Below are positions 39,677-55,610 of a DNA stretch of 64,000 nucleotides, one piece after another. The position numbers and the translations under genes were made by a program. The DNA lies in assembly GCA_963677595.1 (NCBI GenBank), contig OY782041.1:320001-384000 (forward strand), written 5' to 3'. The notes below the pieces were generated by a model, which saw nothing but the letters and a program-made list of their open reading frames with translations, did not search any database and was not told the origin of the DNA. How positions within the stretch are numbered: the stretch's first letter is position 1; every line of letters begins with the position of its first letter. Origin of the DNA: Spirochaetia bacterium (GTDB lineage Bacteria; Spirochaetota; Spirochaetia; CAKZLE01).

Positions 39677-39789
39677 TTAGTACTCCTGCTCGAAGGATTC
39701 GCCGTCCTTACGGTCACGGCACTCCTTGTGTAGGGGAGCAGGGACCTATGCATATTTGGGTATTCATCAGATACTCAAAAATTGGAATA

Positions 39790-39947
39790 GAGATACCTTT
39801 CCGATGAAGCTAGAAGGAGATCCAAAAGCATGTAATGCTATGTATGCCCTGAAGGAAGCAAGTCGCATCGCCGGGGAGCACGGTATATCTGATATGACAC
39901 TGGAAGAGATCAATTCAGAGATAGCCGAAGCACGAAGTGACTCGTGA
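39790..39947 (+). pseudogene. Probable C-terminal remnant of a RelB/DinJ- or AbrB-type antitoxin
   Basis: GISDMTLEEINSEIAEAR tail; no N-terminal DNA-binding part and no toxin seen. Confidence 0.45.
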
Positions 39948-39977
39948 TCAATATCCCTGTATGCCGAACCTTTCTCC

Positions 39978-40820
39978 CTATTTCACTCCTCCGAAGGTCA
40001 ACCCACTGATATAGTACTTCTGAAGCATGAGCGACAGCAGGATCACCGGCAGGATCGCCACGACACCCATCGCCGCCATATAGGTCCAGCCCTGCTGCAG
40101 GATCCCGAAGGTGCTGAGCATCCCAAGGGGGAGTGTGCTCGTATCAGGGGAGGTCAACGTCAGGGCGAACAGGAAGTCATTCCAGGAGAAGATGAATGCG
40201 AACAGGGACGAGGTTACCAGTCCCGGCTTGCTCAGCGGTACCGCGATATAGAGGAAAGCCTGCACGGGATTGCATCCGTCAATGCGCCCTGCATCCTCGA
40301 GGTCCGACGGGATCGACTCGAAGATCCCGCTCATGAGCCAGAACGTGAATGCAGCGTTGTACACCGTATCGATCAGGATAACCGCAGCCCTGGTACCGAG
40401 CAGGCCAAAGTTCTGCATGATGATCCGAAAGGGCATCACCAGGACGATGGTGGGGAGAGCCCTGGTCATGAGGATCATGATCAGCAGCAGCTTCTTCCCC
40501 CTGAACTGGATCCTCGAAAAGGCATAGCCTGCCGGGACTCCTATCAGGAGGGAAAGAACCATGGTTCCCAGCGAAATCACCAGGGAGTTCACGATCCAGC
40601 TGTTTATCGCCATGTTGGTGAAGACATACTTGAAATTATCGAAGATGAACGCACCGAAGAGCTTCGGAGGCAGCTTGAACATGGAGATGCGCTGGGCCAG
40701 TGACGTCGACAGGATCCAGACGACAGGCAGCGCGATGAATGCCATAATGAAGATGATCAGGAGGATCCGGAATATATTCATCACAGACTGAAAAGAATTG
40801 CTTTTACCGACTACCGCCAT
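39978..40820 (-). CDS. Carbohydrate ABC permease (MalG-like)
   Basis: EAA loop LEDAGRIDG, FSWNDF. Confidence 0.93.
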   Translation of the reverse strand: MAVVGKSNSFQSVMNIFRILLIIFIMAFIALPVVWILSTSLAQRISMFKLPPKLFGAFIFDNFKYVFTNMAINSWIVNSLVISLGTMVLSLLIGVPAGYAFSRIQFRGKKLLLIMILMTRALPTIVLVMPFRIIMQNFGLLGTRAAVILIDTVYNAAFTFWLMSGIFESIPSDLEDAGRIDGCNPVQAFLYIAVPLSKPGLVTSSLFAFIFSWNDFLFALTLTSPDTSTLPLGMLSTFGILQQGWTYMAAMGVVAILPVILLSLMLQKYYISGLTFGGVK

Positions 40821-40821
40821 C

Positions 40822-41727
40822 TCAGGACTCCTTGTTCTCGTAGATGAATCGTATGAAGAAGACGCCGACGATCACACCGATGATCAGCAGCACATTTGAC
40901 AAGGCCGCAGCGTACCCGATCCGCAGCTGGTTCATCCCGACCTCATAGATCCTGAGGTTCGCGACCGTGGTCGAAGTACCGGGGCCGCCCCCGGTGATTG
41001 CCCAGATGATGTCGAAGACCTTCAGGGCATCAAGGGAACGGATGAGCAGCGCGACAAGCAGCGTCGGCCGCAGGAGCGGCAGCGTGATTCTGAAGAAAAG
41101 CGGGATCTCCCCTGCCCCGTCGATCCTTGCTGCCTCGTAGGGTTCGGAGGGCAGACTCTTCAGCCCGGCGAGTATGATGATCACCATCAGGGGTGTCCAT
41201 TCCCAGATGTCTACCGCGATGACGGCACCAAGGGCGAGGGACCGTTCAACGATGAGCCCCCTCCCGATATCGATGCCCAGCTTCCGGAGGTAATAGGTGA
41301 TCATGCCGAGATCCGGGTGGTAGAGGGACTTCCATACGAGCCCTGCCACCAGAGGGGTGAATACCGTGGGGATCAGGATGAATGTCCTGATGGCCTCCAT
41401 CACGGCATTCTCATGGTTCAGGAGAAAGGCTATGAGCATGCCGAACAGCACCTCTATCGTGACCGCGAAAAAGACGAAGACCAGCGTGGTGATCAGGGAC
41501 TTCAGGAACTGGGTATCCGCGAGCATCTCACGGTAGTTGTCCAGTCCATTGAACACCGGGGTCCTGCCCAGTTTCAGATCAAAGAACCCGATGAAGATGT
41601 TGTACAGCACAGGGTAGAGAAAGAAGATCATCATGTACAGGATGATAGGCACGAGAAACCACATGAGGCTTTTCTTCTTCTTGTCGATGGATAGCAGGGA
41701 GCTGATGGTCATTTGATCCTCCGACAA
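40822..41727 (-). CDS. Carbohydrate ABC permease (MalF-like)
   Basis: YEAARIDGA, ITLPLL, TGGGPG. Confidence 0.93.
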   Translation of the reverse strand: MSEDQMTISSLLSIDKKKKSLMWFLVPIILYMMIFFLYPVLYNIFIGFFDLKLGRTPVFNGLDNYREMLADTQFLKSLITTLVFVFFAVTIEVLFGMLIAFLLNHENAVMEAIRTFILIPTVFTPLVAGLVWKSLYHPDLGMITYYLRKLGIDIGRGLIVERSLALGAVIAVDIWEWTPLMVIIILAGLKSLPSEPYEAARIDGAGEIPLFFRITLPLLRPTLLVALLIRSLDALKVFDIIWAITGGGPGTSTTVANLRIYEVGMNQLRIGYAAALSNVLLIIGVIVGVFFIRFIYENKES

Positions 41728-41783
41728 AGCCGGATGATGAAAAAGTCATCCGGCTCTGTTCTTAGTTCTTCAGTTGTAATGAG

Positions 41784-43133
41784 CTAGAAGATCGCCTTGA
41801 TCTCTTCTGCTGCAAGGTCGAGAGCTTCTTTTGCCCCAAGTTCATGGGTGATCGCCTGGTTCACCCGCAGTCCGAGGATATCCTGGATCTGGCTGTATTC
41901 AGGTACTCGTGGTCGGTAGTCGCCATCCCCATTCTCATACACTGCAAGGATCCTGCTCATCCATGGCATCTCCTGGTTCAGCGCGCTGTCAGTGAGCACT
42001 GAGTAGCGGATCGGTGCCCCGTTGTTCCTTGTCCATGCCAGCTGAGCGTCCTTGCTTGTGATGTACTTGATGAATTCCCAAGCCACTTCAGCATTCTGGT
42101 CTGATGAATCAGCATTGATGGAGATCCCCCATCCGCCTACACCGTATCCGGGGTTTGAGCCGGCGACTCTCGGGGGAACAGCCATGCCTGTCTTGCCGGC
42201 AACGAGAGAGATTGACTCATCCTCATACCCTGCACGTGCGATACTCCAGGAGGACTGCATGACAGTCTGGCCGGTCCTGTAGGAAGACTCCCGGTCATCC
42301 CACCAGTAGCCGATCGCACCCTGGGGAGCCCAATCGTCGAACAGTTCCACGAAGAATTCGAGTGAATCGACACATTCGCTGCTGTTGACCGTCACGTTCC
42401 CATTGCCGTCAAAGATCTGACCGCCGAAGCCCCTCATGAATTCCATCCAGTCCTGTGCTACTGCAGGGCCCCTGGCTCCGCAGGCAACGAGGCCATACAT
42501 GTTCTCATCCGGGCGGGTGAAGAACTCGGAGATGTCGGCGAGCTGGTCCATAGTCTCCGGGGTTTCCAGCTCATACCCGTATTTGGCCTTGAAAGCAGCT
42601 TTCTCTGCAGGATCCTCATAGAGGTCCTTCCGGTAGATCAGGCTGTTCGCATAGGCAGCCATCGGGTACCCGATCTGCTTGCCGTTCCAGTCACCCATGA
42701 CCCACAGGATCGGCATGATGTCATCATAATCGATCTCGGCTTTGTCCCTGGCGATCCAGCTGGTGAGGTCTTTCGTCCATCCCTCCTGCTCGAACTGACC
42801 GGTCCAGACAATGTCCATCGTAGCCAGGTCGTAATCGGCTGACCCGGTCGCGAAATCCTGGGTGATCTTCTGCTGCAGTTCCACATAGCCCAGGACGTCG
42901 ATACGGACATCTGCACCTGTCTTTGCCTTGAATTCAGCACTTAAGGTCGGAAGATGATCCGCAAACTGTTCAGCGGCCACGGCGAAATGCAGGACGACTC
43001 CCTCGTACGGAAGGGCCTGGCTTACCGGTTCCGGAGAAGGACTACTCGCTGTTTCCTTCGCCCCGCCTGCGAAGATCATCACACAGGAGAGAAGCATAAC
43101 CGAGACGATAACCATTACTCTACTCTTTTTCAT
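41784..43133 (-). CDS. Carbohydrate ABC substrate-binding protein
   Basis: FAGGAKE signal, YRKDL, GGWGISIN, AWEFIKY. Confidence 0.92.
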   Translation of the reverse strand: MKKSRVMVIVSVMLLSCVMIFAGGAKETASSPSPEPVSQALPYEGVVLHFAVAAEQFADHLPTLSAEFKAKTGADVRIDVLGYVELQQKITQDFATGSADYDLATMDIVWTGQFEQEGWTKDLTSWIARDKAEIDYDDIMPILWVMGDWNGKQIGYPMAAYANSLIYRKDLYEDPAEKAAFKAKYGYELETPETMDQLADISEFFTRPDENMYGLVACGARGPAVAQDWMEFMRGFGGQIFDGNGNVTVNSSECVDSLEFFVELFDDWAPQGAIGYWWDDRESSYRTGQTVMQSSWSIARAGYEDESISLVAGKTGMAVPPRVAGSNPGYGVGGWGISINADSSDQNAEVAWEFIKYITSKDAQLAWTRNNGAPIRYSVLTDSALNQEMPWMSRILAVYENGDGDYRPRVPEYSQIQDILGLRVNQAITHELGAKEALDLAAEEIKAIF

Positions 43134-43199
43134 TTTCCACTCCTAAAAATATTTTCCATCCGAAAGCGCTGAGTCTTACCAAGTGCACCGGATTGGATT

Positions 43200-44228
43200 T
43201 CAAAAATTGATAGCGACCCTGAACGTATCCGGGTCGAGAGCCCGCTCAAAGGCTTTACCAGCCTCATTTGCATCCCACTGCTCGGAGAGGAACTCCTCCA
43301 CGCTGACCAGCCTGCCGGAAAGCAGGCGGGATGCGGTATAGAAGTCACTGGTTGCAGGGCTGTAGGAACCGGTGATCACATACTCCCCGTAGTGGACCCA
43401 GTTGGGGTCGAGCTTGATGGGGTCATTGGGATGGAACGAGCCATAGAACATCATGGTTCCCATCTTCTTGAGGTAGCCCAGGGCCTCCTCGGCTATGGAG
43501 GGTCTCGCGGCAGTGAAGAACACGTATTCAGCACCCTCCCCTGAGGTGATCCCTGAGATGACTGCCTTCGCGTCCTCATTGATCGGGTCAACAGCGTAAT
43601 GTGCCCCCGCCTTCAGGGCCAGCTGACGACGATCCTCTCGCGGCTCTACCATGATTACCCTCGTCCCCCGCAGGAGACTGAGTTTCAGGTGGAGCATCCC
43701 CATGATACCGGCACCGATGATCACCACCGTCTCCCCGAGGTCAGGGTTGGCCCGCTTGATACTGTGCACACAGCAGGCCAGCGGTTCGGTGAAGGCAGCT
43801 TCCTGGAAGCTTATATCACCCGAGACCGTGAACACCTTGTTCACATCCATGGCGATGAGCTCAGCGAGCCCGCCGCTGGACGGGATGTTGTCGTAGGACC
43901 GCTTCTCCGGTGTACCGCCGCAGAGGTTGTTGAACCCCTGGTAGCAGAACGAGCAGTGCCCGCAGTCATCAAGCGTCTTGAACACGACCCGGTCCCCTAC
44001 CTTGAAGGAGGTGATCGTCCCGTCAGGGATCTCCACGATCTCCCCTGCTGCCTCATGGCCGGGGATGAACGGCAGGTTCATGCTCGAGGCACCGGAGAAG
44101 ATACGCTGCTCCCAGGTGCACAGCAGGCAGGTATGGATCCGTATCAGGACCTGTCCATGCCTGGGTTGCGGAGCCGCTACGTTCACGAGCTCTGCCTTCC
44201 TGGTCCCGGTCACTGCTACCGCTCTCAT
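43200..44228 (-). CDS. Zn-dependent (polyol-type) dehydrogenase
   Basis: GHE, CGHCSFC-x7-C, GAGIMG. Confidence 0.92.
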   Translation of the reverse strand: MRAVAVTGTRKAELVNVAAPQPRHGQVLIRIHTCLLCTWEQRIFSGASSMNLPFIPGHEAAGEIVEIPDGTITSFKVGDRVVFKTLDDCGHCSFCYQGFNNLCGGTPEKRSYDNIPSSGGLAELIAMDVNKVFTVSGDISFQEAAFTEPLACCVHSIKRANPDLGETVVIIGAGIMGMLHLKLSLLRGTRVIMVEPREDRRQLALKAGAHYAVDPINEDAKAVISGITSGEGAEYVFFTAARPSIAEEALGYLKKMGTMMFYGSFHPNDPIKLDPNWVHYGEYVITGSYSPATSDFYTASRLLSGRLVSVEEFLSEQWDANEAGKAFERALDPDTFRVAINF

Positions 44229-44995
44229 AGGTTCCTCCCGGCTTCCGAGGCCGTCTTCCCGTTATGGACGATATCGACCAGAGCGGCTGTCAATGCGCCC
44301 GGGTCGGGATGCTGCCATACATTCCTGCCTATGGCTACCCCTTGTGCCCCGGCCTCCATAGCCTGTTCCACGACCAGGAACAGGTCCTGCAGGTTCTTCG
44401 ACTTTGCCCCGCCGAGGACGATCACCGGACGGAAGCAGCCGTCCACAATCGTCTTGAACTCAGCAGTGGTCCCCACAAAACTCGTCTTGATGATGTCAGC
44501 ACCAAGCTCAGCCCCGATACGGGCTGCCAGCCTGATGGTCTCGACCGTCTTCGCAGGCTCAGGAGAGAACCCGCCGGGGAGCATCTCTGCCAGGAGCGGC
44601 ATCCCCCAGGCATGGGCCTCTGCCGCGAGCTCTGACACATTCGTCAGGGTCTCGATCTCATTGACCGCACCGGGAAACCCCATGCATGCCAGGCAATCAG
44701 CCCCTGCCTGTAGTGCTGTCTCGGTATCGAGCAGCCGGTTCCCTGTGGGCAGGCTGGAAAGGGCGGAGTTGCCCCCATCCATACGGAGGATCAGTCCGGT
44801 TCCCTTCAACTCTTCCTCAAAACGCGATGCCATACCGTAACCGGCCAGCACTGCGTCAGCACCGCCGGCAACAACGGACCTGATGATACCTGAGGTATCC
44901 TGCATACCGGGAAGCACATCCAATCCAAGACCATGGTCCATCGCAACGACCACCGTCCTCTTGTCTTCCCTGAAGATGTTTCCGAGTCTACGCAT
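44225..44995 (-). CDS. DhnA/LsrF-type class I aldolase
   Basis: AMDHG, AELGADIIKT, LGG, GRNVWQ. Confidence 0.9.
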   Translation of the reverse strand: MRRLGNIFREDKRTVVVAMDHGLGLDVLPGMQDTSGIIRSVVAGGADAVLAGYGMASRFEEELKGTGLILRMDGGNSALSSLPTGNRLLDTETALQAGADCLACMGFPGAVNEIETLTNVSELAAEAHAWGMPLLAEMLPGGFSPEPAKTVETIRLAARIGAELGADIIKTSFVGTTAEFKTIVDGCFRPVIVLGGAKSKNLQDLFLVVEQAMEAGAQGVAIGRNVWQHPDPGALTAALVDIVHNGKTASEAGRNL

Positions 44996-44996
44996 T

Positions 44997-46442
44997 TCAT
45001 TCTCCTTCTATCGTTATCTCATGAGTTTTTGTTCTCACGGCAGACAGCCTGTGGGATGTCTCCCGTATTCCTGCATATGTCGTATCGTATATCGCATACA
45101 GCTCATCCCAGAGGTCAGCATGCGGACCTTCAGGCTCGATGCTGAAGTTGATGTTCACCCACCTGTCAGTCAGTTCCCTGATGCTGCCGGCCCCGCCCGC
45201 ATAGGAGGCAAGGATCATGGCCCCTAAGGGAGCGGCATCTGTCTCCTTCATCGAATGGAACACAGCACCGGTGATGTTCGCCTTGTACTGGAGCAGGGCC
45301 CGGTTATTTGCCCCGCCCCCAACCGCGCGTATCGCTCCCATGTCGCGTGAACTTCCTCCATGTACGATCTCGATACACTGCCGCGTACCAAACGAGATCC
45401 CCTGGAGCACGCTCCGTACGAGTTCTTCAGCTGTCGTACCTGAGCTCATCCCGATGAACGAAGCTGAGGCCTTCTCATCCCACACGGGGCTTCGTTCCCC
45501 GTTGAGGTACGGCAGGTAGATCAGGGGGAGCGGTGTGCGAACGTCCATGGACCGTATAGCATCGATCGTCATTCCAGTGAGCCTGCTGACCCAGGCGATG
45601 GATGCCCCAGTCGAGGACATGGTCTCGATGCTCAAGCCTCGCTGCGGGATCACATGCAGGAGCGGAGTCGCTCCTTCTTCCCAGCATCGTGTGATGCAGG
45701 TGGAGGTCCCGGTCCCGTCGACCATCATGCCGTCATCCACAGCCCCGGCACCAATAGCCTCGCACCAGGCATCGATCCCACCCGTCACAACAGGAATACC
45801 AGCGGCCAGACCGCAGTCTTCGGCAAACTGACTGGATGTCACCCCGACGATCTCCCAGGATTCCACCAGTTCAGGGAACACCCCTGAGGGGATACCGCAA
45901 CATGCCGTATCCAGCGTCCTGGTCCCCTTGTCATAGAAAGCAAGTGTGGAGGCCGTCGAGTGATCCAGGCATGTTCTCCCGGTGAGGAGATAGACTGCCA
46001 GGTCCTTGGGGTAGAGCGCCGTGACCGGTTCCTGGAACAGGTCGTTCGATTCCCGATAGAGTTTCAGGAGCTTCGCCTCAAAGCAGGTGCCGTCCTTGGT
46101 GAACCCCGGGATCAGCTGTCTCAACTCACTCGCTGCATCGACTGCGGTATTGTCCTGCCAGGTGATGATGTCCGTCAGCAACTCGCCGTCAGCTGAAACG
46201 AGGATGATGCTCGGGCCATGCCCGCAGAAGCTTATTCCCTCGATGGCCTCATACCGTGCGGAACTAAATGCGGAGAGGTTCTGCATCAGTCTTCTGAACG
46301 CTTCGATGAAATACTCCTGTGAATGTATCCCGGGTTTGAACATTCCGGCAGGATACTGCCGGGAGATCACGTGCAGCTCACCGCCAGCGGTACCAAGCAC
46401 GGCCTTCAGGCTGCCGGTCCCAATATCGATACCCACGTACAT
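44997..46442 (-). CDS. FGGY carbohydrate kinase (xylulokinase-like)
   Basis: GIDIGTGS, WQD, PYLNGERSP, GGGA. Confidence 0.9.
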   Translation of the reverse strand: MYVGIDIGTGSLKAVLGTAGGELHVISRQYPAGMFKPGIHSQEYFIEAFRRLMQNLSAFSSARYEAIEGISFCGHGPSIILVSADGELLTDIITWQDNTAVDAASELRQLIPGFTKDGTCFEAKLLKLYRESNDLFQEPVTALYPKDLAVYLLTGRTCLDHSTASTLAFYDKGTRTLDTACCGIPSGVFPELVESWEIVGVTSSQFAEDCGLAAGIPVVTGGIDAWCEAIGAGAVDDGMMVDGTGTSTCITRCWEEGATPLLHVIPQRGLSIETMSSTGASIAWVSRLTGMTIDAIRSMDVRTPLPLIYLPYLNGERSPVWDEKASASFIGMSSGTTAEELVRSVLQGISFGTRQCIEIVHGGSSRDMGAIRAVGGGANNRALLQYKANITGAVFHSMKETDAAPLGAMILASYAGGAGSIRELTDRWVNINFSIEPEGPHADLWDELYAIYDTTYAGIRETSHRLSAVRTKTHEITIEGE

Positions 46443-46452
46443 TACAGCACCC

Positions 46453-47175
46453 CTACCTTTTCAGCGTCACGATATGCTTGTATCGGTCCGCTCGGTAGAC
46501 ACCTTCAGCATATTCGACCGGGCTTCCATCTGTCGCATAGGTCGTGTGCCTGATGATCAGGATAGGGTCACCTTTTGAGATACCCAGGGTGGAGGAGACC
46601 TCGTTCCCCGCGATATCGGCCTCAATGATCTTTGCAGCCTCACCGATCTGTATATGGTATGTTCCCTCGAGCAGGTCATAGATCGACTTGCTGAAATCAT
46701 CCTCTTCCGTCACACCAGTACTGGTCGCAAGGTAGTTCTCAAATACCGCGACCGGTTCATCTTCTACCAGCCTAAGTCGTTTTGCGTAGATCACCGGGTC
46801 CCCGGGATTGATCCGCAGGTGCTCCGCGATTCTCTCGCTGGCTGGGATCCGCAGGACCTCAAGCACCGAAGTGGCGATCTTGACTCCCTGCTGCGCCATC
46901 TTCTCGGTAAAACTCTGGAGCCTTGAGTTCCCGTCATCGGTCATCTTGGGATACGCCACGATAGTCCCGTACCCCTGCTTCTTCACCAGCAGGTCCTCGA
47001 AGACAAGCCCGTGTATTGCATTACGAACAGTGATCCGTGATATCCCGTACATCTTCTGGAGGTCCTTCTCACAGGGGATCAGGTCCCCAGGTTTGTAATA
47101 CCCCTCAAGAATCTGTTTCCTCAGTTTTTCCTGCAGTTGGAAGTAGAGTGGGACGCGACTGTTCTGATCCAGCAT
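46453..47175 (-). CDS. GntR-family (HutC/UTRA) regulator
   Basis: PLYFQL, SRITVRNA, GYGT, UTRA-like C-terminus. Confidence 0.93.
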   Translation of the reverse strand: MLDQNSRVPLYFQLQEKLRKQILEGYYKPGDLIPCEKDLQKMYGISRITVRNAIHGLVFEDLLVKKQGYGTIVAYPKMTDDGNSRLQSFTEKMAQQGVKIATSVLEVLRIPASERIAEHLRINPGDPVIYAKRLRLVEDEPVAVFENYLATSTGVTEEDDFSKSIYDLLEGTYHIQIGEAAKIIEADIAGNEVSSTLGISKGDPILIIRHTTYATDGSPVEYAEGVYRADRYKHIVTLKR

Positions 47176-47194
47176 GACGGCTCCTTTTTCATCA

Positions 47195-47251
47195 TAACGT
47201 TAGAACGTTATAACGTTTCGTAGCATAACAGGTACATACCAATACTGTCAA
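47195..47251 (-). promoter_or_regulatory. gntR operon promoter with AACGTT x3 operator
   Basis: TTGACA-N18-TATGCT followed by AACGTT at 47196, 47204 and 47212 (contains palindrome AACGTTATAACGTT). Confidence 0.7.
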
Positions 47252-47410
47252 GTCCCTGCCCGTAAACCTGCGAATACGATAAGACTCTGTGAAAGCTATA
47301 CGGTTCTCATATGCTTGCAAATTTATACATAAGTTCTTCGTGTTTCTTATAGACATACCATAGTATACATATAGTAAAGTATAGTCATACTATACAAAGG
47401 AGTTCGTTAC

Positions 47411-47725
47411 ATGAAAAGAGTGCTATTTCTCGTGCTTGTGATCATTTTAGCCAGTTCCCCGCTGTTTGCGCAGGAAGTTCCCGCGATCCAGGACGATGAC
47501 CTGGACAGTATCAACCTTGACCTGGATAGCCTGGGTAAGGATCTCGCGATCGGCATAGCCGTATCAGGGGCTGCTATCGGTATCGGGACGCTTGTAGCTT
47601 CTGCTCTGGATGGCATAGCCCGTAACCCTGAACTGGAATCAAAACTTACCAATACTATGTATACCGGTATCATTGCCTGCGCCGGGCTTGCCCTCGGGGC
47701 CATGGCAGTGACCATCGCTTTCTAA
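47411..47725 (+). CDS. Orphan F-type ATP synthase subunit c-like protein with signal peptide
   Basis: LAIGIAVSGAAIGIG...ALDGIARNPE...KL..TM..G hairpin; AAGGAG RBS; no carboxylate in helix 2. Confidence 0.8.
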   Translation: MKRVLFLVLVIILASSPLFAQEVPAIQDDDLDSINLDLDSLGKDLAIGIAVSGAAIGIGTLVASALDGIARNPELESKLTNTMYTGIIACAGLALGAMAVTIAF

Positions 47726-47752
47726 AGAAGACAGTTTCTCATTGGAATCCAT

Positions 47753-47785
47753 GAAGCCCTTCCTGTTCCGGGAGGGCTTTCTTTT
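47753..47785 (+). terminator. Intrinsic terminator
   Basis: AAGCCCTTCC-N6-GGGAGGGCTT followed by TCTTTT. Confidence 0.8.
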
Positions 47786-47932
47786 AAGGGCAAGATTGTA
47801 GCATCGTAGGCATTGACGATATCTCTATCAGGTTTTCTGTATAGCACACCTTCTCCATCACTCACAGAAGCTGCTCAGTACCAACATCTTGTAGAATATC
47901 CTTCTCTTAGGCTCACCGCCAAGAAACCGGAG

Positions 47933-48003
47933 CCTGACAAAATTATGCCATATTTCCCCCCTATGATATGACTCATAGAACGGGTGACAACCCATGAGGA
48001 GAA
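47933..48003 (+). promoter_or_regulatory. Conserved promoter/leader, copy A
   Basis: CCTGACAAAATT-N4-CATATTTCCCCC-N-TAT-N-ATAT...GGGTGACAACCC..AGGAGAA; homologous to 51929-51998 (-). Confidence 0.8.
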
Positions 48004-48008
48004 ACAGT

Positions 48009-48566
48009 ATGAGAAAGAACAGATTCATCATCCTGCTGGCACTTTTCGCCTTGGCAGTATCAGGGGGCCTCTATGCAGCAAACACCTTCAGTGCAGGCGT
48101 CGCAGGCTACTACACCTACGATGACCTGACTGCAGGCAATTATCGCACATTCCTTCCCGGAGTACGGGTGGAATTCTTCCTGAATGATTTCTTGGGCGTA
48201 TCAGGAGATGCAGTGTTCAAGCAGGATGCCGATTACGAGGATGTCTATTCCGCTACCTGTATTGCCGATGTAGTGCTCCGGCTCCCGCTCGGGCCGCTGG
48301 AACCGTATGTAGCGACAGGTCCTGCGTTCGAGGGTATCATCGTGGGCGACTACTTCGATATCGAGGACAGTGCTTTTGCCTACAACCTCAGAGGCGGAGT
48401 CGACCTGAACCTCTGGGACACATTCTCGGTAGGGACGGAGGTCAACTTCCTGGTAGATGATGTGATCTCATTCGTGGAGGGGTTCTCAGACCTGACCCCC
48501 ACCCAGCAGAGCCAGGTCCTCAAGGAGTACGGTACCATCGGCCTAACAGCTAAGCTCAAGTTCTGA
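48009..48566 (+). CDS. Outer-membrane beta-barrel-like protein
   Basis: Signal peptide, alternating beta-strands, EPYV..G motif, terminal Phe (LTAKLKF). Confidence 0.7.
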   Translation: MRKNRFIILLALFALAVSGGLYAANTFSAGVAGYYTYDDLTAGNYRTFLPGVRVEFFLNDFLGVSGDAVFKQDADYEDVYSATCIADVVLRLPLGPLEPYVATGPAFEGIIVGDYFDIEDSAFAYNLRGGVDLNLWDTFSVGTEVNFLVDDVISFVEGFSDLTPTQQSQVLKEYGTIGLTAKLKF

Positions 48567-48591
48567 GCTAAAAAAGCTGTGCTGTCATAGT

Positions 48592-49959
48592 TCAAACTGG
48601 GGGTTGAGTCGGGAACTCGATAATAAAACAGTTCCCGACTCCTTCACGACTCTCCAGCTTGACATCCCCGCCATGCAGCTGTGCTATCTGGCGTACGATC
48701 GAGAGCCCAAGACCGTTCCCCGGTGTTAAACTGCCCCGGGAAGTATCACCGCGGTAGAACCTTTCGAATATCTTCTCACGCAGCAGGGCAGGTATAGGTT
48801 CCCCGTCATCACACACTTCTATCCGGCAGAGATCCTGCTCGATGCTGCCGCTTATCACAACATGCTTACCGCTTCGGTTGTACCGTATCGCATTCTGGAT
48901 GAGGTTGCCGACAGCCCTTCGCATTCTCACCTCATCCATCAAAACAGTACCAGCCTCCCCTTCCGGCAGCCTGCAGGAGAGCGACTTGGCCCCTATGGCG
49001 GCTGCACTCCTCCACTGCCGCTCCACTGTGGAGAGAACCATCCGCAGATCAAGTGCTCGCAGGTTCAGCCGTATCTCTCCGCAGTCCGCCTCAGAGAGGT
49101 ACTCCAGGTCATATACCAGGCCCGAGAGCGAATCGATGCTGCCGATCATGCCCCTGGTTGCCTCATCAACGGTGGTGATGCCGTCTTTGAGAGATCTAGC
49201 CTCAAGCCGGATCGCGTGCAGTGGTCCGTTGAGGTCATGGGCGAGGTCTGCCATCAACTGCCGCCTCAAACCCCTCTGCCGCTCAAGCTCCCCGCTCATC
49301 TCATTGAATGATTCCCCGAGACTCGTGGTCTCGGAACTCCCGGAAGGGATGATCTCCTTCTGCTCCCCTGAGGCGACAGCTGTCATCGCATGCTGAAGCT
49401 CACTGAGCGGCCGTGTGATCCGCCTTGACATGATGGCCAGGATGAGGACTGCGATACCGGCAGTCACGACCTCCCTCCAGAGGAGAGACGTGAGGAGAGA
49501 TGTGAGGTATTTTCTGCTCTCGGCATCGATATAGTCAGCGCTGATATAGAGCGTCACCGACCCGACAGCCTCCAAGGCTTCAAGGTCGCGTATCTCGCAG
49601 CGGTCACCCTTAATCAGGGCGCTGTTTCCCACGGTGGAGAGGGTCTCGAAACTGTTTAGCAGCATCTTCCCCTCGACATCATGGACCACCAGGCGGATGT
49701 GGGCATCCTGCTCTCCGAGGTAATCGAGGGAGATCATATGCTCAAGTTCTGTTTCCAGTTCATCCCACCCCTGGTCCCGTGTGTAGACGGCACTCAGGTA
49801 CCCGCCTATCAGCTCGCTCCTGAAACTCGTCAGGAGCAGCGGCAGGTCTCGCCGATACTGCATATAATCAAGTGCCATACTCAACGCGGATGAGAGGAGG
49901 ACGATGAGGAAGAATACCGATGTGATGTAGACGTACATCGGGACGTTTCTTACTCGCAT
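48592..49959 (-). CDS. HAMP sensor histidine kinase (BaeS-like)
   Basis: AHDLNGPL, NLIQNAIRY, FERFYR, GNGLGL. Confidence 0.93.
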   Translation of the reverse strand: MRVRNVPMYVYITSVFFLIVLLSSALSMALDYMQYRRDLPLLLTSFRSELIGGYLSAVYTRDQGWDELETELEHMISLDYLGEQDAHIRLVVHDVEGKMLLNSFETLSTVGNSALIKGDRCEIRDLEALEAVGSVTLYISADYIDAESRKYLTSLLTSLLWREVVTAGIAVLILAIMSRRITRPLSELQHAMTAVASGEQKEIIPSGSSETTSLGESFNEMSGELERQRGLRRQLMADLAHDLNGPLHAIRLEARSLKDGITTVDEATRGMIGSIDSLSGLVYDLEYLSEADCGEIRLNLRALDLRMVLSTVERQWRSAAAIGAKSLSCRLPEGEAGTVLMDEVRMRRAVGNLIQNAIRYNRSGKHVVISGSIEQDLCRIEVCDDGEPIPALLREKIFERFYRGDTSRGSLTPGNGLGLSIVRQIAQLHGGDVKLESREGVGNCFIIEFPTQPPV

Positions 49960-50624
49960 ACCAACCGGTACCCCCCTCCATAGACTGTCTGGATCGGGGC
50001 GAATCCATCTGCGTGGATGATCTTCCTCAAACGGCGGATATGAGAGTCTACAGCCCGGTCGTACCCTTCGAACGAATCGGGGAAGGACTGCTCGATGATC
50101 TGCTCCCGGGACAGCACTGCTCCCGGCTGTCTCAGGAGGGTCCAGAGGATGAGGAACTGGGCCTGTGTGACTGGCAGCCGCGCCCCATCCAGGAAGACCT
50201 CAGCGGTATCGCTGTCCGCACTCAGCCGGCCGCAGGTTATCGTTCTGCGCACCTGGCTCCTCGTCCGTCGCAGGAGGGCTTTCACCCGTGCCACAAGCTC
50301 ATCCGGGTCAAAGGGTTTAGTGATATAGTCATCAGCACCGCCGTCCAGCCCTTTCAGGCGGTCATCGCGGGAACCAAGGGCAGTCACCATGATGATAGGC
50401 ACATCCGAATCCTGCCGTATGATCCTACGGAGCTCGCTCCCGTCGATCCCCGGCAGCATGATATCGAGGAGGATCAGGTCGAAGCTCTCAGTGCGAATCG
50501 CCTCCAGCGCCTTCCTGCCGTCCGGGACATGCATAGTCCTGAGACCGGATCGTTCCAGGTACGCGCTGACCAGATGTGCACTGCGCACATCATCCTCAAC
50601 CAGCAGTATCCGGGTCTCACTCAT
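49950..50624 (-). CDS. OmpR-family response regulator (BaeR-like)
   Basis: VEDD, LDIMLP, GADDYITKPF, RAVDSHIRRLR. Confidence 0.95.
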   Translation of the reverse strand: MSETRILLVEDDVRSAHLVSAYLERSGLRTMHVPDGRKALEAIRTESFDLILLDIMLPGIDGSELRRIIRQDSDVPIIMVTALGSRDDRLKGLDGGADDYITKPFDPDELVARVKALLRRTRSQVRRTITCGRLSADSDTAEVFLDGARLPVTQAQFLILWTLLRQPGAVLSREQIIEQSFPDSFEGYDRAVDSHIRRLRKIIHADGFAPIQTVYGGGYRLVCE

Positions 50625-51205
50625 CTCTTGCTGGACTCTCTATGGTTCGCGGTTGGTGCTGGCTGCTGAGATGGGGAGGGACCTGACGGTCCCGCACCGC
50701 CGGCTGGGGACGTTTGGGGACTCTCTTCATGATCGGTATGGTCCGAGGGTTGCCCTACGGGTTCATCTGGCTGGTGATTATCCTGCTCATTCGTCTGGTG
50801 ACCTGAAGGTTCATCCACCTGCTCATGAGTCTGTACTGCTGAAGTACTCCCCCCTGTTGGCCGGGAGTTGTCAGTTCGGGTGACCTTACCCCCACTGTTC
50901 ATCCCGGCAAACAGGGATTGGGCCTCATCAGCAGTTAGCTCACCTTCCGCGATACGATAGAGGAGGACCTCGAGCACACCGGAGGTGTCGGTGAAGGGAA
51001 CTCGGTAGTCCCGCCTCAATTCATCGAGGGCAGCCTGAGCTTCCGCCACAGACAGCTCGCCGGTACTGACCTTGAGGCTCAACTCGGAGAAAGTCTGTGA
51101 CAACGTACTTTCGTAGCCTGTCTCTCTGGACCCCAGGCTGTACAAACTGGAGCATAGCAGCAGCATGCAGCAGATAAGAACTACTATGATCCTCTTTCTC
51201 TTCAC
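50621..51205 (-). CDS. Exported hypothetical protein, low-complexity C-terminus
   Basis: Signal peptide (YSLGSRE), repeated GELS/T..EAQ, Q/H/P/S-rich tail. Confidence 0.7.
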   Translation of the reverse strand: MKRKRIIVVLICCMLLLCSSLYSLGSRETGYESTLSQTFSELSLKVSTGELSVAEAQAALDELRRDYRVPFTDTSGVLEVLLYRIAEGELTADEAQSLFAGMNSGGKVTRTDNSRPTGGSTSAVQTHEQVDEPSGHQTNEQDNHQPDEPVGQPSDHTDHEESPQTSPAGGAGPSGPSPSQQPAPTANHRESSKR

Positions 51206-51348
51206 TCGCAGTCACTCCCTTTCAACTGAACAAGACCCTATGGACCCAGTCATTGTACCATGCTGGTTGTTCACCCGCAACTGGGCACGTCATGCTGCGC
51301 GAACAGGGAGCAGGGCGGTCCAGTTTCTCCCAAAAGTGCGTATCATGA

Positions 51349-51924
51349 TCAGTGGGACCCATGCCCGTGGGTCCCTGCAGCAGGAGCACCAGGGCTTGCC
51401 TGTGCTGGGGGTGCAGCATGTTCATGGACAGGGGGTGAAGGCACCTGTGTCAGGTCCGTACCCTCTTCAGAGTCGGGCTCTGTCTCAGTCACTGTACCGA
51501 TACCGCTGTCAACACCGACAGCCGCATGGAGTTCGTGCTGATAGTGCGTCTGAGCCCCAGGTGCATCAAGAGATGCAGCCCCGGTATATGTCACATTCGC
51601 TCCCCCGAACTCCACCAGACCGAGTATACTGGCGAGGGAGGCAAGTTCCTCATCCGTGAGTTCTGCGTCTTCGATCCCGGCAGCGACTGCAGCGTAATCG
51701 AAGCTGCTCCCGTCAGAGAAGCCTTCCAGCCCCAGGATATCGGCAAGTGAAGCCAATTCCTCGTCCGAGAGTGCGTCCTCTGCTGTTCCTGCATCGAGGA
51801 GGGCAGACTGTATGTCAGATACCGTCGTGAGGGCCTCGCTTTCCGATGAGCCCCCGGCAAAGGCCGCACCACATACCAGTACCGTCAGCATGATGCTCAG
51901 CACCACAATCTTCTTCATGTTCAT
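51349..51924 (-). CDS. Exported hypothetical protein with internal repeat and His-rich tail
   Basis: FAGGSSE signal; L(S/T)DEELASLAxILGL twice; ends THGHGSH. Confidence 0.75.
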   Translation of the reverse strand: MNMKKIVVLSIMLTVLVCGAAFAGGSSESEALTTVSDIQSALLDAGTAEDALSDEELASLADILGLEGFSDGSSFDYAAVAAGIEDAELTDEELASLASILGLVEFGGANVTYTGAASLDAPGAQTHYQHELHAAVGVDSGIGTVTETEPDSEEGTDLTQVPSPPVHEHAAPPAQASPGAPAAGTHGHGSH

Positions 51925-51928
51925 CCTC

Positions 51929-51998
51929 TTCTCCTTGCGGGTCGTTACCCAATACCTGAGGATATGATACGGGGGAAATATGACGCAATTTTGTCAGG
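51929..51998 (-). promoter_or_regulatory. Conserved promoter/leader, copy B
   Basis: Reverse complement CCTGACAAAATTGCGTCATATTTCCCCCGTATCATAT...GGGTAACGACCC..AGGAGAA. Confidence 0.8.
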
Positions 51999-52106
51999 AG
52001 GATAATTTCTGATCAAGATCTGAGCCTACGGAGCATACGTTGAGTAAAACTCATGCATGAAGAGTTCACCCTGCAGGGGTATCGATCAGGGCTGGTCTTT
52101 TGGACA

Positions 52107-52568
52107 TCATGTACGAGACTCTATCATCTTGTGGTAGGCATTCAGCTTGGTGACATGCGCAAAGTAATCTCCCTGCTCATCAGGCGGCAGGCGATCGAGG
52201 ATCTCTGTCATGTATGCCCAGTGTTCGTTCTTAAAGCGTGTGGTCAGCTCCATACCCGCTTCCGTCAGCACAAGATTGTATACCCGCTTGTCCCCGGCTG
52301 ACTGCTCCTTCTCTATATACCCGCCCGTGATCAGCCTTGCAGCCACAGGGGTAAAGGACCCTTTCGCGATGACGAGCATGCGGCTCAGATCGGACATGGT
52401 CATCTTCCCATGGAACCGAAGTGTCAGCATAGCCTTCATATGGGTGAAGTTCAGGCCTTCCGGGAGCTTGAACACCTCTTCGAAGTCCTTGAAGAATACC
52501 GATATGATGTATCGGTGCAGGTCGAACAGGCTCTCGATCCGCTCTTCTGCTAGGTTAGCTTTTTCCAT
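52107..52568 (-). CDS. MarR-family regulator
   Basis: MTMSDLS, DKRVYNLVLTEAG. Confidence 0.92.
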   Translation of the reverse strand: MEKANLAEERIESLFDLHRYIISVFFKDFEEVFKLPEGLNFTHMKAMLTLRFHGKMTMSDLSRMLVIAKGSFTPVAARLITGGYIEKEQSAGDKRVYNLVLTEAGMELTTRFKNEHWAYMTEILDRLPPDEQGDYFAHVTKLNAYHKMIESRT

Positions 52569-52582
52569 ACGTCATTATAGTC

Positions 52583-53995
52583 CTACGAGAACTCTTTGAC
52601 TACACGCATCCTGGAGTCTTCCAGGATACAGCCTCCCGTCGTCTCCTTCTCATCATGCAGCCGGTTCAACTCCCGGAAGAACGAGAGGCTCATCAGCATG
52701 GCAACACCGGTAGTGAGGATGTCAGCGATCGGCTGGGCATAGATGAACCCATTGAACCCAAAGAGGTCATTGAGCAGGAACAGCGCTGGGAGATAGATGA
52801 TGCACTGCCTGCCGAGCGATACGACCATTGCCCTGAAGGCTTTACCGACCGACTGGAAGGTGATCATCATCGCCATCTGCAGGCCGATGAACGGCAGCCC
52901 TATGGAGAAAGCCTTGATCATCTTCGTACCAGCCGCTATGGTTGCAGGATCCTTGATGAAGAGGCCTATCAGGTTCTCCCCGAAGAGCAGGAATACGACC
53001 ATGAAGAAGGCAGCGAGTCCTGTTGCGTAGAGGAGTGTTATCTTGAATCCTTCCTTGAGCCTGTCATACTTCTGTGCGCCGTAATTATACCCCGCAAACG
53101 GCTGGTACCCCTGGGCCAACCCCATGATGAGCATGAAGGCCATACTCACGACCCGCATCTGGACACCATTTCCGGCAACGATATGGTCCCCATATCCTGC
53201 GGCGATGATGTTGACGAGCACCATGGAGAAGGACATCACCAGGTTGGACAGCGCGGAGGGGATGCCGATCTTGAAGATCTCCCCGTATATACGCTTCGTA
53301 GGATGAATATGCCGTACCTTCACTGACAGCAGGGTCCTCTTCGACATCAGGTGTGACGCGAAATAGAGAGCCCCGATCCCAGTGCCGATCACGGTCGCCC
53401 AGGCTGCCCCGGCAACCCCCATATCGAGGACGAAGATGAACACAGGGTCCAGGATGATATTAGACCCGATGCCCAGGACCATCCCGATCATGGCCTTGTT
53501 GGTTGCGCCCTCACTCCTGATAAGACCCGATAACGTAATCTGCAGGATGAACACGATCGAGAAGACTGAGATGACTGAGAAATATGCATTGGTCGCCTGG
53601 AATGTCGCGGGGCTTGTCCCGATGACCGAAAGCAAAGGCTGGCGGAATAGCATCAATACTGCAGTTATGATGATCCCTATGGCAGTTGCTGTATATACTG
53701 CCGTGGACGAGGTCCTCTTAGCTTCATCATAGTCCTTCGAACCGAGTTTCCGGGATATGTAGCTGGATGCCCCATTCGCGAAGATGTTCCCGATTGCCTG
53801 GATACCCATGAACACCGGGGTCGCGATCGAGAGGGCGGCGACCAGGTTCGGGTCATTCAGCCTCCCGATGAAGAAGGTATCCGTGAGATTATATATCATG
53901 ACCACGGTCATAGACAGCATCGTGGGCAGGGAGAGTCTCAGGATCGCCTGCCTGACCGGCGCTTTCTCCATGAGCTGTATTCTATCAGTATCCAT
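52583..53995 (-). CDS. MATE efflux transporter (MepA-like)
   Basis: YNLTDTFFIG, NIILDPVFIF..MGVAGAAWAT, GYNYGA. Confidence 0.93.
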   Translation of the reverse strand: MDTDRIQLMEKAPVRQAILRLSLPTMLSMTVVMIYNLTDTFFIGRLNDPNLVAALSIATPVFMGIQAIGNIFANGASSYISRKLGSKDYDEAKRTSSTAVYTATAIGIIITAVLMLFRQPLLSVIGTSPATFQATNAYFSVISVFSIVFILQITLSGLIRSEGATNKAMIGMVLGIGSNIILDPVFIFVLDMGVAGAAWATVIGTGIGALYFASHLMSKRTLLSVKVRHIHPTKRIYGEIFKIGIPSALSNLVMSFSMVLVNIIAAGYGDHIVAGNGVQMRVVSMAFMLIMGLAQGYQPFAGYNYGAQKYDRLKEGFKITLLYATGLAAFFMVVFLLFGENLIGLFIKDPATIAAGTKMIKAFSIGLPFIGLQMAMMITFQSVGKAFRAMVVSLGRQCIIYLPALFLLNDLFGFNGFIYAQPIADILTTGVAMLMSLSFFRELNRLHDEKETTGGCILEDSRMRVVKEFS

Positions 53996-54022
53996 GTATG
54001 TGCTCCTACGCATCTGTATAAT

Positions 54023-54088
54023 TAGTTTGTTTTCTAACTAAATATACCGAGCCTTGCAGAAAGAGTCAAGTAGTTTGTTTTCTAACTA
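54023..54088 (-). promoter_or_regulatory. MATE promoter flanked by two identical MarR-type boxes
   Basis: TAGTTTGTTTTCTAACTA at 54023-54040 and 54071-54088, around TTGACT-N17-TATATT. Confidence 0.85.
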
Positions 54089-54188
54089 TATACCAGTATG
54101 AGCAGCTGGTATGCGCTGTGATGCACACACATACAGTATTCTCTCCAGGAATTGAATCAAACACGACTTTTTCGTGTTTAGTACCAGT

Positions 54189-55610
54189 ATGGACTATACA
54201 CGAATCAACGACATCGTACAGAAGAAGTTCTCCATCCCCTCCCTCTACCCTTACCAGCAGCTGGTCATCACCAACATCATCGAGGGGATCGAGGAGGATC
54301 TCGAACCCCATGACCAGCTGGTGATCCTGCCCACAGGCTACGGGAAGTCGATCTGCTTCATGGTGCCTGGGCTGCTCATCAAGGGGCTCACGCTGGTGAT
54401 CTATCCCCTCCTCTCCCTGCTCAACGACCAGGAACGGCGCTTCAGGAAGATTGGGGCCCCTGCCATCGTGATCAGGGGTGGTGATGATCGGGAGGAGCGG
54501 CGAAAAGCTGTCTCATATATCGCATCACAGGAACGGGGCTTCATCCTGACGACCCCGGAGTCGCTGGAGACTAACACGGTACAAGCTATGATGCAGAGCC
54601 TCCCCATCCGCCATATCGTCATCGACGAGGCCCATATCGTGAGCTTCTGGGGTAAGAGTTTCCGCCCTGCCTATGCACGGTTGGGGGAGACGATCTCTCG
54701 CTTGAGAGTTTCCCAGATTACTGCCTTCACTGCCACGGCTGCAGCACATACCATCGATGATATCAGACAGCTCCTGTTCCTGGGACGTCCGGTCCACCTC
54801 ATCGAGGGGATGACCGACCGTCCCAACATCTTCTACAAGGTCATCCCCTCGATCAGCAAGGTCCATGACCTGCACTACCTCTTCAGCCGTGAACAGATAC
54901 AGAAACCTATACTCGTGTTCTGCCCCAGGCGGGCACTGACCGAACAGCTTGCCTATCTCTTCCGAATGAGACTCGGCAGCAAAGAGATCTACTACTACCA
55001 TGCAGGGATGGAGAAGGATGAACGGAACTATGTGGAGAAGTGGTTCCACCCCTCGTCTGACGGGATCCTCTTCGCCACATCGGCCTTCGGTCTGGGGGTG
55101 GACAAACCGGATGTGCGGACGGTCATCCACCACACGGTATCCTCGACGGTAGAGGCCTTCCTCCAGGAATCAGGACGGGCCGGCCGGGACGGTAAGCCGT
55201 CCCTCTCAGTCGTCCTCCATCACTGGAAGGATGGTCTCTCAGCATCAGTGAAGCCGTTCATCACGTCCGTCTCCACGTGCAGGAGGACCACCCTGCTCGA
55301 GGGGTTCTCCCTGCAGCCGGACTCCTGCTTCGGCTGTGATGTCTGCAGGAAGAGCGTCATCACCCTCCCCGACGGGTATGAGCAGATCATGAACCTGATC
55401 CGGCAGTACCCCCGCCGTTTCTTAACAGAGCAGGCTGCCTTAGTCCTGTACGGGCGGATGTCATACACCGTGCGCCGGGAGCGTCTCCATGACTGCAGGT
55501 ATTTCGGCATCCTCTCCTCCTGGCAACTCGATGATATCATGGAGGCAGTGGGTTCCATGACGAGGTTGGGGATCCTGAGAACAGATACACACGGCAGGCT
55601 GAGCCAATAA
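54189..55610 (+). CDS. recQ: RecQ-family ATP-dependent DNA helicase (short form)
   Basis: PTGYGKS, DEAH, FRPAY, TATA, YHAG, QESGRAGRDG, CRR...CxxCDVC. Confidence 0.9.
   Translation: MDYTRINDIVQKKFSIPSLYPYQQLVITNIIEGIEEDLEPHDQLVILPTGYGKSICFMVPGLLIKGLTLVIYPLLSLLNDQERRFRKIGAPAIVIRGGDDREERRKAVSYIASQERGFILTTPESLETNTVQAMMQSLPIRHIVIDEAHIVSFWGKSFRPAYARLGETISRLRVSQITAFTATAAAHTIDDIRQLLFLGRPVHLIEGMTDRPNIFYKVIPSISKVHDLHYLFSREQIQKPILVFCPRRALTEQLAYLFRMRLGSKEIYYYHAGMEKDERNYVEKWFHPSSDGILFATSAFGLGVDKPDVRTVIHHTVSSTVEAFLQESGRAGRDGKPSLSVVLHHWKDGLSASVKPFITSVSTCRRTTLLEGFSLQPDSCFGCDVCRKSVITLPDGYEQIMNLIRQYPRRFLTEQAALVLYGRMSYTVRRERLHDCRYFGILSSWQLDDIMEAVGSMTRLGILRTDTHGRLSQ

Follow-up and report, generated by a model that had tools for sequence, protein, structure and literature searches.

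Within the 64,000-nt window analyzed here, a stretch of the genome of a Spirochaetia bacterium (G000), we identified a gene on the + strand (47411-47725; coordinates are those of the whole window unless stated otherwise) whose 104-aa product, P0001, is shown by its open reading frame, profile matches, and alignment to be an ion-blind homolog of subunit c of F-type ATP synthases. P0001 belongs to a family of such proteins in which the residue preceding the lost carboxylate is an invariant cysteine (Cys90). Both the family and its Cys90 had been missed by an earlier note on this DNA, made from the letters alone (hereafter the sequence-only reading), which had otherwise described the protein correctly in several respects.

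Fold and Ion-Binding Site of P0001

The assignment of P0001 to the PF00137 superfamily rests on a profile score of 32 bits, compared to the curated cut-off of 24, and on a two-helix hairpin fold. The best NCBIfam matches were F-type c models, and P0001 fell below all 14 of the F-type cut-offs listed (e.g., 30.2 vs. 43.95 for TIGR01260). The AlphaFold model consists of a separate helix (residues 2-19) and the two helices of the hairpin (28-71 and 73-103), with a mean pLDDT of 77.6 that reaches ~90 over residues 61-90, and its top Foldseek matches were c-ring chains (rmsd 1.4-1.9 Å for ranks 1-9). With no other atp gene at 40000-55000, where five nearby proteins were scanned, the orphan c-subunit homolog proposed in the sequence-only reading is therefore borne out by both profile and structure. 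A complex prediction with four copies of residues 26-104 scored 0.28 against a mark of 0.42, in a run that had no folded controls, and was weighed neither way in the choice among explanations.

HMMER alignments to c subunits of known structure place Ala91 (codon at 47681-47683, + strand) in the column of the ion-binding Glu/Asp, and helix 2 is devoid of any Asp or Glu, just as the sequence-only reading had stated. The placement of Ala91 agrees with the spacing of 20 residues from the loop Arg in the Bacillus pseudofirmus c subunit, in which the RQPE loop spans residues 34-37 and the ion-binding residue is Glu54, i.e., R34/E54 (PMC2914638, in excerpt). A register shifted by one residue, with Cys90 (codon at 47678-47680, + strand) in the Glu column, is disfavored by the ungapped structure alignment and by the match of G92, L93, and A94; under either register, the column holds Cys90 or Ala91 and no acid. 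According to established c-ring chemistry, a c subunit without its carboxylate does not carry ions in the usual way, and the job of a rotor needs subunit a. The earlier statement that P0001 could not translocate ions thus stands for the usual route and, because the carboxylate is missing and an F-type a subunit was not found (see below), P0001 should not be able to do the rotor's job.

Gene Structure and Upstream Region

The gene is preceded by a Shine-Dalgarno-like AAAGGAG (47396-47402, + strand) located 8 nt 5' of the ATG. The parts of the protein follow the same strand in order: a predicted Sec/SPase I signal peptide (residues 1-20, 47411-47470), likely cleaved at A20/Q21 in PLFA/QE; an acidic linker (residues 21-40, 47471-47530), predicted to be periplasmic; the packing motif of the inner helix with G48, G53, G57, and G59 (residues 48-59, 47552-47587); and the cytoplasmic loop ARNPE (residues 70-74, 47618-47632). 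The signal-like N-terminus, the glycines, and the loop were all described as such in the sequence-only reading. In the AlphaFold model, residues 28-40 of the linker lengthen helix 1 at its N-terminal end, and the length of the linker varies across the family.

The same reading listed a signal peptide among the features of P0001. Because a signal-like extension occurs in 75 of 201 canonical single-hairpin c matches, a set biased by the query, and likewise in the single-hairpin K subunit of the host, the signal peptide of P0001 is not special among c subunits. Its pattern is common to 32 other N-termini in G000, mostly of secreted-type proteins. A Cys in the signal-like helix (residue 14 column) is present in 18 of the 20 aligned family members, though absent from the window's own P0001, and is unusual for signal peptides of this genome, as only 2 of 33 similar N-termini in G000 contain a Cys.

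Regarding expression signals, the ribosome-binding site claimed by the sequence-only reading is present, its terminator is plausible, and its monocistronic gene can be inferred from the gene layout, with no promoter identified by a sequence scan of the upstream DNA. The candidate terminator is a hairpin followed by a T-rich tail (47758-47776, + strand) with moderate support; it is not outstanding, given that the terminator scan found one such hairpin against a shuffle mean of 1.0 and that 11 of 200 shuffles folded equally well (z = -1.82). The 7-bp inverted repeat adjoining the ribosome-binding site (47379-47395, no strand assigned) exists as the sequence-only reading had described, yet it does not exceed chance and lacks conservation. 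Perfect 7-bp repeats with loops of 0-8 nt occur at 1.7 per kb in G000 (0.21 per kb for 3-nt loops only), the repeat folds with a z of 0.07, and it has no counterpart 5' of the three other genome copies of the gene; we therefore rejected it as a regulator. A search of Rfam returned just two sub-threshold matches, at chance level.

The DNA at 47232-47366 belongs to a duplicated sugar-uptake cassette, so only ~45 nt of the upstream region is the gene's own, and a link between the P0001 gene and the upstream gntR region seems doubtful. The cassette on the left of the gene (gntR, kinase, aldolase, dehydrogenase, and ABC sugar transporter) has a second remnant, 88-93% identical (window 39781-40202 and 47232-47366), at G000:C1:2305302-2306310 (L222), where the deletion of ~7 kb has left the gntR promoter region immediately next to the final 75 permease codons. 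The intact cassette is flanked by a gene at 38399-39643 that we take to be a probable transposase. Two similar 12-mers (47230-47241 and 47349-47360), one of them inside the predicted gntR promoter, share ACATACCA and are presumably candidate operators of a UTRA-type GntR. Farther downstream, two 70-nt segments in opposite orientation (47933-48003 and 51929-51998; 76% identical) lie 5' of an outer-membrane beta-barrel gene (47994-48566) and of a cluster for secreted proteins and a two-component system, and are candidate sites of a shared regulator. One sequencing run, probably from the source sample and so not independent support, matches the stretch in one contig without differences; none of the runs listed as containing the gene was of RNA. 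In the same run, a 1039-nt contig matches the gene over 68 nt (47612-47679) on the opposite strand with six differences; the assembled genome lacks a counterpart of this contig, which is probably a chance match or derived from another organism.

A Family of Ion-Blind Hairpins

Our search of 1.84 billion representative sequences yielded seven further full-length relatives of P0001 in separate 50% clusters, and a profile built from the eight sequences recovered seven more clusters, none of them used in building it, at 92-150 bits compared to 61 bits for the next match. A cluster look-up for ten of the clusters added members, for a total of 24 proteins (some near-duplicates) in addition to the copy in genome G001, representing 15 clusters at 90% identity and 8 at 50%. 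The sequence-only reading had named a lack of conserved homologs, together with no expression, as a sign of a decaying relic; here, a family was found, and its reading frames are open throughout the 15 clusters even though members are just 34-57% identical to P0001. All 24 are single hairpins of 59-130 aa, and no fused or longer forms were found, which is weak evidence. Gene context is known for the four genome copies and comes from none of the metagenomic members, of which P0267, P0269, P0271, and P0273 are on contigs of 43-421 kb.

The helix-2 acid is absent from all 24 proteins, and Cys90, located at R+19 and one residue before the lost Glu, is present in all of them as well as in the G001 copy. 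We compared 17 distinct family rows with 47 canonical hairpins. At position 91, the family has Val, Ala, Leu, or Cys, compared to 46 Glu and 1 Asp in the canonical set, and Cys is not among the five commonest canonical residues at column 90. Nine residues are invariant in the 17 rows (G48, G53, I58, R71, P73, E74, G86, A89, and C90), while G57 is found in 15 and G59 in 16. A motif of the GxGxGxG type is thus retained through G53, G57, and G59, with an Ala-type variant at position 55, which is always Ala or Thr in the family and Gly in 30 of the 47 canonical sequences. Position 52 is Ser in 11 rows and Phe or Tyr in 6, compared to Ile or Leu in 36 of 47 canonical sequences, and a polar residue has been gained at helix-2 position 84 (Asn in 11 of 17 rows). 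The R-[QN]-P cytoplasmic loop is kept in the family through R71, P73, and E74; the canonical set was gathered with loop patterns, so its own loop conservation is biased.

Pattern scans of metagenome and genome contigs gave no family members among the matches listed (at least 160 loci), which were all ordinary c subunits and served as the canonical set. No family match was obtained from viral contigs, in a search for close relatives only, and the ESM Atlas returned PF00137 clusters only. We found no description of an ion-blind family in the open literature searched, from which most subscription papers are absent, and orphan c subunits go unmentioned in the accessible part of a preprint with broad c-subunit sampling (bioRxiv 10.64898/2026.10.01.756066).

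Several other proteins outside this family are worth noting. P0009, P0016, P0046, P0057, and P0104 (232-511 aa) are of the signal or lipoprotein type and contain four to seven repeats of the c-loop region. The model of P0104 is that of a helical-repeat protein (pLDDT 78.6), for which the PDB gave no match at an E-value of 0.001. In these proteins, the c hairpin may have been repurposed independently a second time. In addition, P0169 and P0130 are double-hairpin PF00137 proteins with F-type loops in which the ion position of the first hairpin lacks an acid, as that of the second apparently does too.

Probable Affiliation With F-Type c Subunits

In a tree of 66 alignment columns, the 17 family rows form one clade among F-type c subunits (100/97, starred), with P0001 as its earliest branch and a sister branch with values of 83/87 (not starred). 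F-type c models match all 20 members scanned, while a V-type K model matches 4 of the 20. For each of the 17 rows, every one of 63 F-type hairpins, which were gathered with family-derived queries, outscored every host K subunit, and the family profile gave 29 bits for the host single-hairpin K compared to about 44-60 for F-type c subunits. Profile matches and pair scores thus favor an F-type origin, and an approximately unbiased (AU) test that placed the family and the host single-hairpin K in one clade did not reject that arrangement (p = 0.135).

Distribution and ATPase Partner Genes

The family is present in four of six genomes of the order (G000, G001, G002, and G005), which are 86-97% complete, and was not found in G003 and G004 (93% and 96% complete) even at an E-value of 1. 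It is absent from 395 other genomes of the class that were searched, and in a sample of 400 other genomes of the phylum no score exceeded 54.9 bits, as high as ordinary c subunits reach. One further member, identical to the G005 copy, was labeled Spirochaetota by its source.

None of the six genomes was found to encode an F-type a subunit, an epsilon subunit, or UncI, nor an F-type b subunit above the cut-off (one match below it lies beside the V-type A gene in G005), and F-type gamma was not found in G000, the one genome searched for it. By contrast, A/V-type operons are present twice in G000; the K subunit of the first is a single hairpin with a signal, and that of the second a double hairpin. 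G000 also has a fifth, weaker PF00006 match without annotation, which is presumably Rho. This inventory agrees with the earlier remark that many spirochaetes use V/A-type rather than F-type enzymes. It does not support an F-type rotor as the target of the dominant-negative inhibitor or stoichiometry modulator proposed in the sequence-only reading; since the F-type genes were not found, a modulator could act just on an A/V-type K ring. Both A/V-type operons were also seen in G003 and G005, and only the double-hairpin operon was found in G001 and G002. As a result, the intact family copies, those of G000 and G005, coincide with the single-hairpin K operon in both cases, while G003 has that operon and no family copy was found there.

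In all four genomes, the family gene stands alone outside the ATPase operons, and in G000 it is far from both. Its neighborhood differs among G000, G001/G002, and G005, with nothing shared across the four. A link to the neighboring two-component system was considered and rejected, as the kinases beside the gene in G000 and in G001 share 22% identity. In G005 (L213:8662-12252, G005:C1), a sodium-translocating pyrophosphatase gene is followed first by a gene for a 261-aa protein of no known family and then by the family gene; the pair of pyrophosphatase and 261-aa protein occurs elsewhere in G000.

Selection and Decay

The comparison of substitution rates among homologs that the sequence-only reading had proposed gave pN values (0.22-0.40) below pS (0.68-0.79, near saturation) in all six genome pairs, and second codon positions are 70-83% identical between genome copies despite the saturated synonymous sites. 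For G001/G002, the pN/pS ratio of the hairpin is 0.21; three ordinary genes gave 0.15, 0.16, and 0.23, and the double-hairpin K gave 0.09. For G000/G005, the hairpin ratio is 0.53, compared to 0.20 and 0.18 for the two K subunits and 0.35 for ispG (all ratios are uncorrected and inflated by saturation). Between G000 and G005, the hairpin is 47% identical, whereas the single-hairpin K subunits reach 71% and the double-hairpin ones 82%, such that the family changes at two to three times the pace of working rotor subunits. Overall, selection on the family is purifying and looser than that on working rotor subunits. The constraint seen between G001 and G002, where the single-hairpin K operon was not found, suggests that it need not depend on that ring. 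Both of these copies appear damaged at the 5' end: that of G001 has TTA at the start position and Glu at Gly59, while in G002 the upstream sequence is shorter by ~100 nt and the signal is altered, and either case could be recent decay or assembly error.

Possible Functions of the Family

We tentatively favor the explanation that an exapted F-type c hairpin, kept under selection, packs into a non-rotary, homo-oligomeric membrane ring, which develops the suggestion of a repurposed ring or scaffold in the sequence-only reading. The starting point is a c-type hairpin with no carboxylate, an invariant Cys90, and no F-type a, b, epsilon, or UncI detected. The signal peptide would be cleaved and would set the usual N-out, loop-in topology in the inner membrane, where side-by-side packing of the hairpins may rely on the Gly motif and the R-[QN]-P-E loop, both of which are retained. 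The helix-1 Gly motif sets the contact between adjacent c subunits (PMC7594442, in excerpt), and Ala in this motif widens rings (PMC2914638, in excerpt), so the presence of Ala/Thr at position 55 suggests that such a ring is probably wider than usual. In the last and weakest step, the ring would neither turn nor carry ions, because it lacks the acid and an F-type a subunit, and may instead be a lipid-filled structural ring or a docking platform in which Cys90 acts as a newly gained functional site. This explanation draws on the fold, the single clade, the undetected F-type partners, the purifying selection, the kept packing features, and the differing gene neighborhoods of the four genomes, and a homo-ring is favored in particular because the packing features and loop have been kept though epsilon was not found in the six genomes and gamma was not found in G000. 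However, retention of the motif could be an inherited fold constraint instead of a sign of ring assembly, and the divergence faster than that of rotors, the two apparently damaged copies among four, and the failure to find the family in G003 and G004 all count against this explanation. It is very unlikely, in our estimate, that the c-ring was exapted into a stand-alone gated pore, widened by Ala/Thr55, with a waist made more polar by Ser at position 52 and with a belt of invariant, mid-membrane Cys residues that would switch it by sensing redox state or metal. Position 52 matches Ile22, the narrowest point of the pea chloroplast ring (PMC3458034, in excerpt); such a pore is made less plausible by the highly variable lumen residues of c-rings (same source), by the normally hydrophobic, lipid-filled nature of c-ring pores (PMC2914638, in excerpt), and by the Phe or Tyr found at position 52 in 6 of the 17 rows.

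The restriction of intact copies to genomes with the single-hairpin K operon, and their damage in G001 and G002 where the operon was not found, would be better explained than by a homo-ring if the hairpin were a free, ion-blind spacer or brake in the single-hairpin K ring of the host A-type ATPase, lowering the ions per ATP or damping activity like an unfused half of the V-type or Acetobacterium woodii hybrid rotor. We consider this rather doubtful, though it is the main alternative. P0001 shares its layout with the host K subunit (a signal ending in SPLFA, a polar linker, and one hairpin), hhalign relates the two with a probability of 86, rings containing carboxylate-less hairpins are known (PMC9171764, in excerpt), and the AU test does not reject the common clade. 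Such a spacer is at odds with the F-type affiliation of the sequence in model matches and pair scores, with the distance of the gene from both A/V operons, with the lack of a family copy in G003, and with the long purifying selection in G001 and G002; these six related genomes are too few to settle the question. A hairpin that forms no ring and instead acts as partner or regulator of another membrane protein, with the loop docking and Cys90 serving as a redox, metal, or acylation site, seems unlikely. Cys14 may join Cys90 in most members if the N-terminal helix remains uncleaved, and the invariance of the loop and Cys90, the enrichment of this second Cys, and the polar residue gained at position 84 are all consistent with such a role, as is the existence of unrelated carboxylate-less c-like repeat proteins, one of which models as a helical repeat and not as a c-ring arc. 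On the other hand, P0001 itself lacks Cys14, neither a conserved neighbor nor a fused form indicates a partner (the fusion search being weak), and the inner-helix Gly motif, known for packing between subunits, is kept. Finally, the fast divergence, the 5' damage, and the narrow range with no copy found in two of six genomes would fit a functionless relic in slow decay, left from an F-type operon that was lost or acquired in part, which we regard as improbable. A neutral gene would not be expected to keep open frames across 15 clusters (8 at 50%) at such low identity, constrained second codon positions beside saturated synonymous sites, and the new residues Cys90, Ala89, and Gly86 fixed in all 17 rows, and for the family as a whole this reading is largely refuted.

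Comparison With Known Systems and Implications

The best solved matches of P0001 are F-type AtpE proteins (PF00137, TIGR01260) of Chloroflexus aurantiacus (9ITJ/9ITT) and Bacillus PS3 (1WU0/7WEM/6N2D), with which it shares the two-helix hairpin, the Gly motif, the R-[QN]-P-E loop, and ~32% identity at an rmsd of 1.0-1.7 Å. Unlike AtpE, it has no helix-2 Glu/Asp, an invariant Cys preceding that position, and Ala/Thr55, it scores below every NCBIfam cut-off, and it is encoded outside an atp operon in a set of six genomes where no F-type partner was found. Retained hairpins without a carboxylate occur in V-type c/K subunits and in c1 of the A. woodii hybrid rotor (4BEM) (PMC9171764, in excerpt). 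These resemble P0001 in being c-type hairpins that lost the ion site and are still kept; however, they are fused to a working hairpin as part of a rotor, whereas P0001 is a free, single, F-type hairpin whose gene is unlinked to either A/V operon. To our knowledge, the known carboxylate-less hairpins are all fused inside working rotors. The single-hairpin A-type K of the host (G000:C1, about 2.8567 Mb), for all its similarity in signal peptide, polar linker, and single hairpin, retains the Glu, differs in its loop, and is part of a full A/V operon, unlike P0001. The idea of a c-ring acting apart from ATP synthesis is shared with the proposed leak channel of the mitochondrial c subunit (PMC7594442, in excerpt). 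That proposal concerns a working, Glu-bearing ring, unlike P0001, for which channel activity is hypothetical. The leak channel proposal itself is reportedly disputed.

Overall, the general weight of these findings is limited by the small size of the family and its confinement, in the genomes searched, to one spirochaete order. The family is a variant of a protein at the core of bioenergetics, narrow in distribution and under selection, undescribed in the open literature searched, with a putative second job. The c subunit is regarded as a one-job part with one indispensable residue; a free-standing family in which the acid is lost and a Cys is fixed, and which persists in genomes that yielded no F-type enzyme, suggests that the hairpin has a second use. 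If the proteins insert into the A-type ring, the number of ions per ATP would be tuned from a separate gene, in contrast to a ring stoichiometry that is held fixed per species (PMC7594442, in excerpt). If they form a gated pore, it would be a natural c-ring channel without an ATP synthase and a clean test of c-ring conduction. If, as we tentatively favor, they form a ring of their own, the family would provide a natural system for studying a c-ring, including its conduction, without subunit a and F1.
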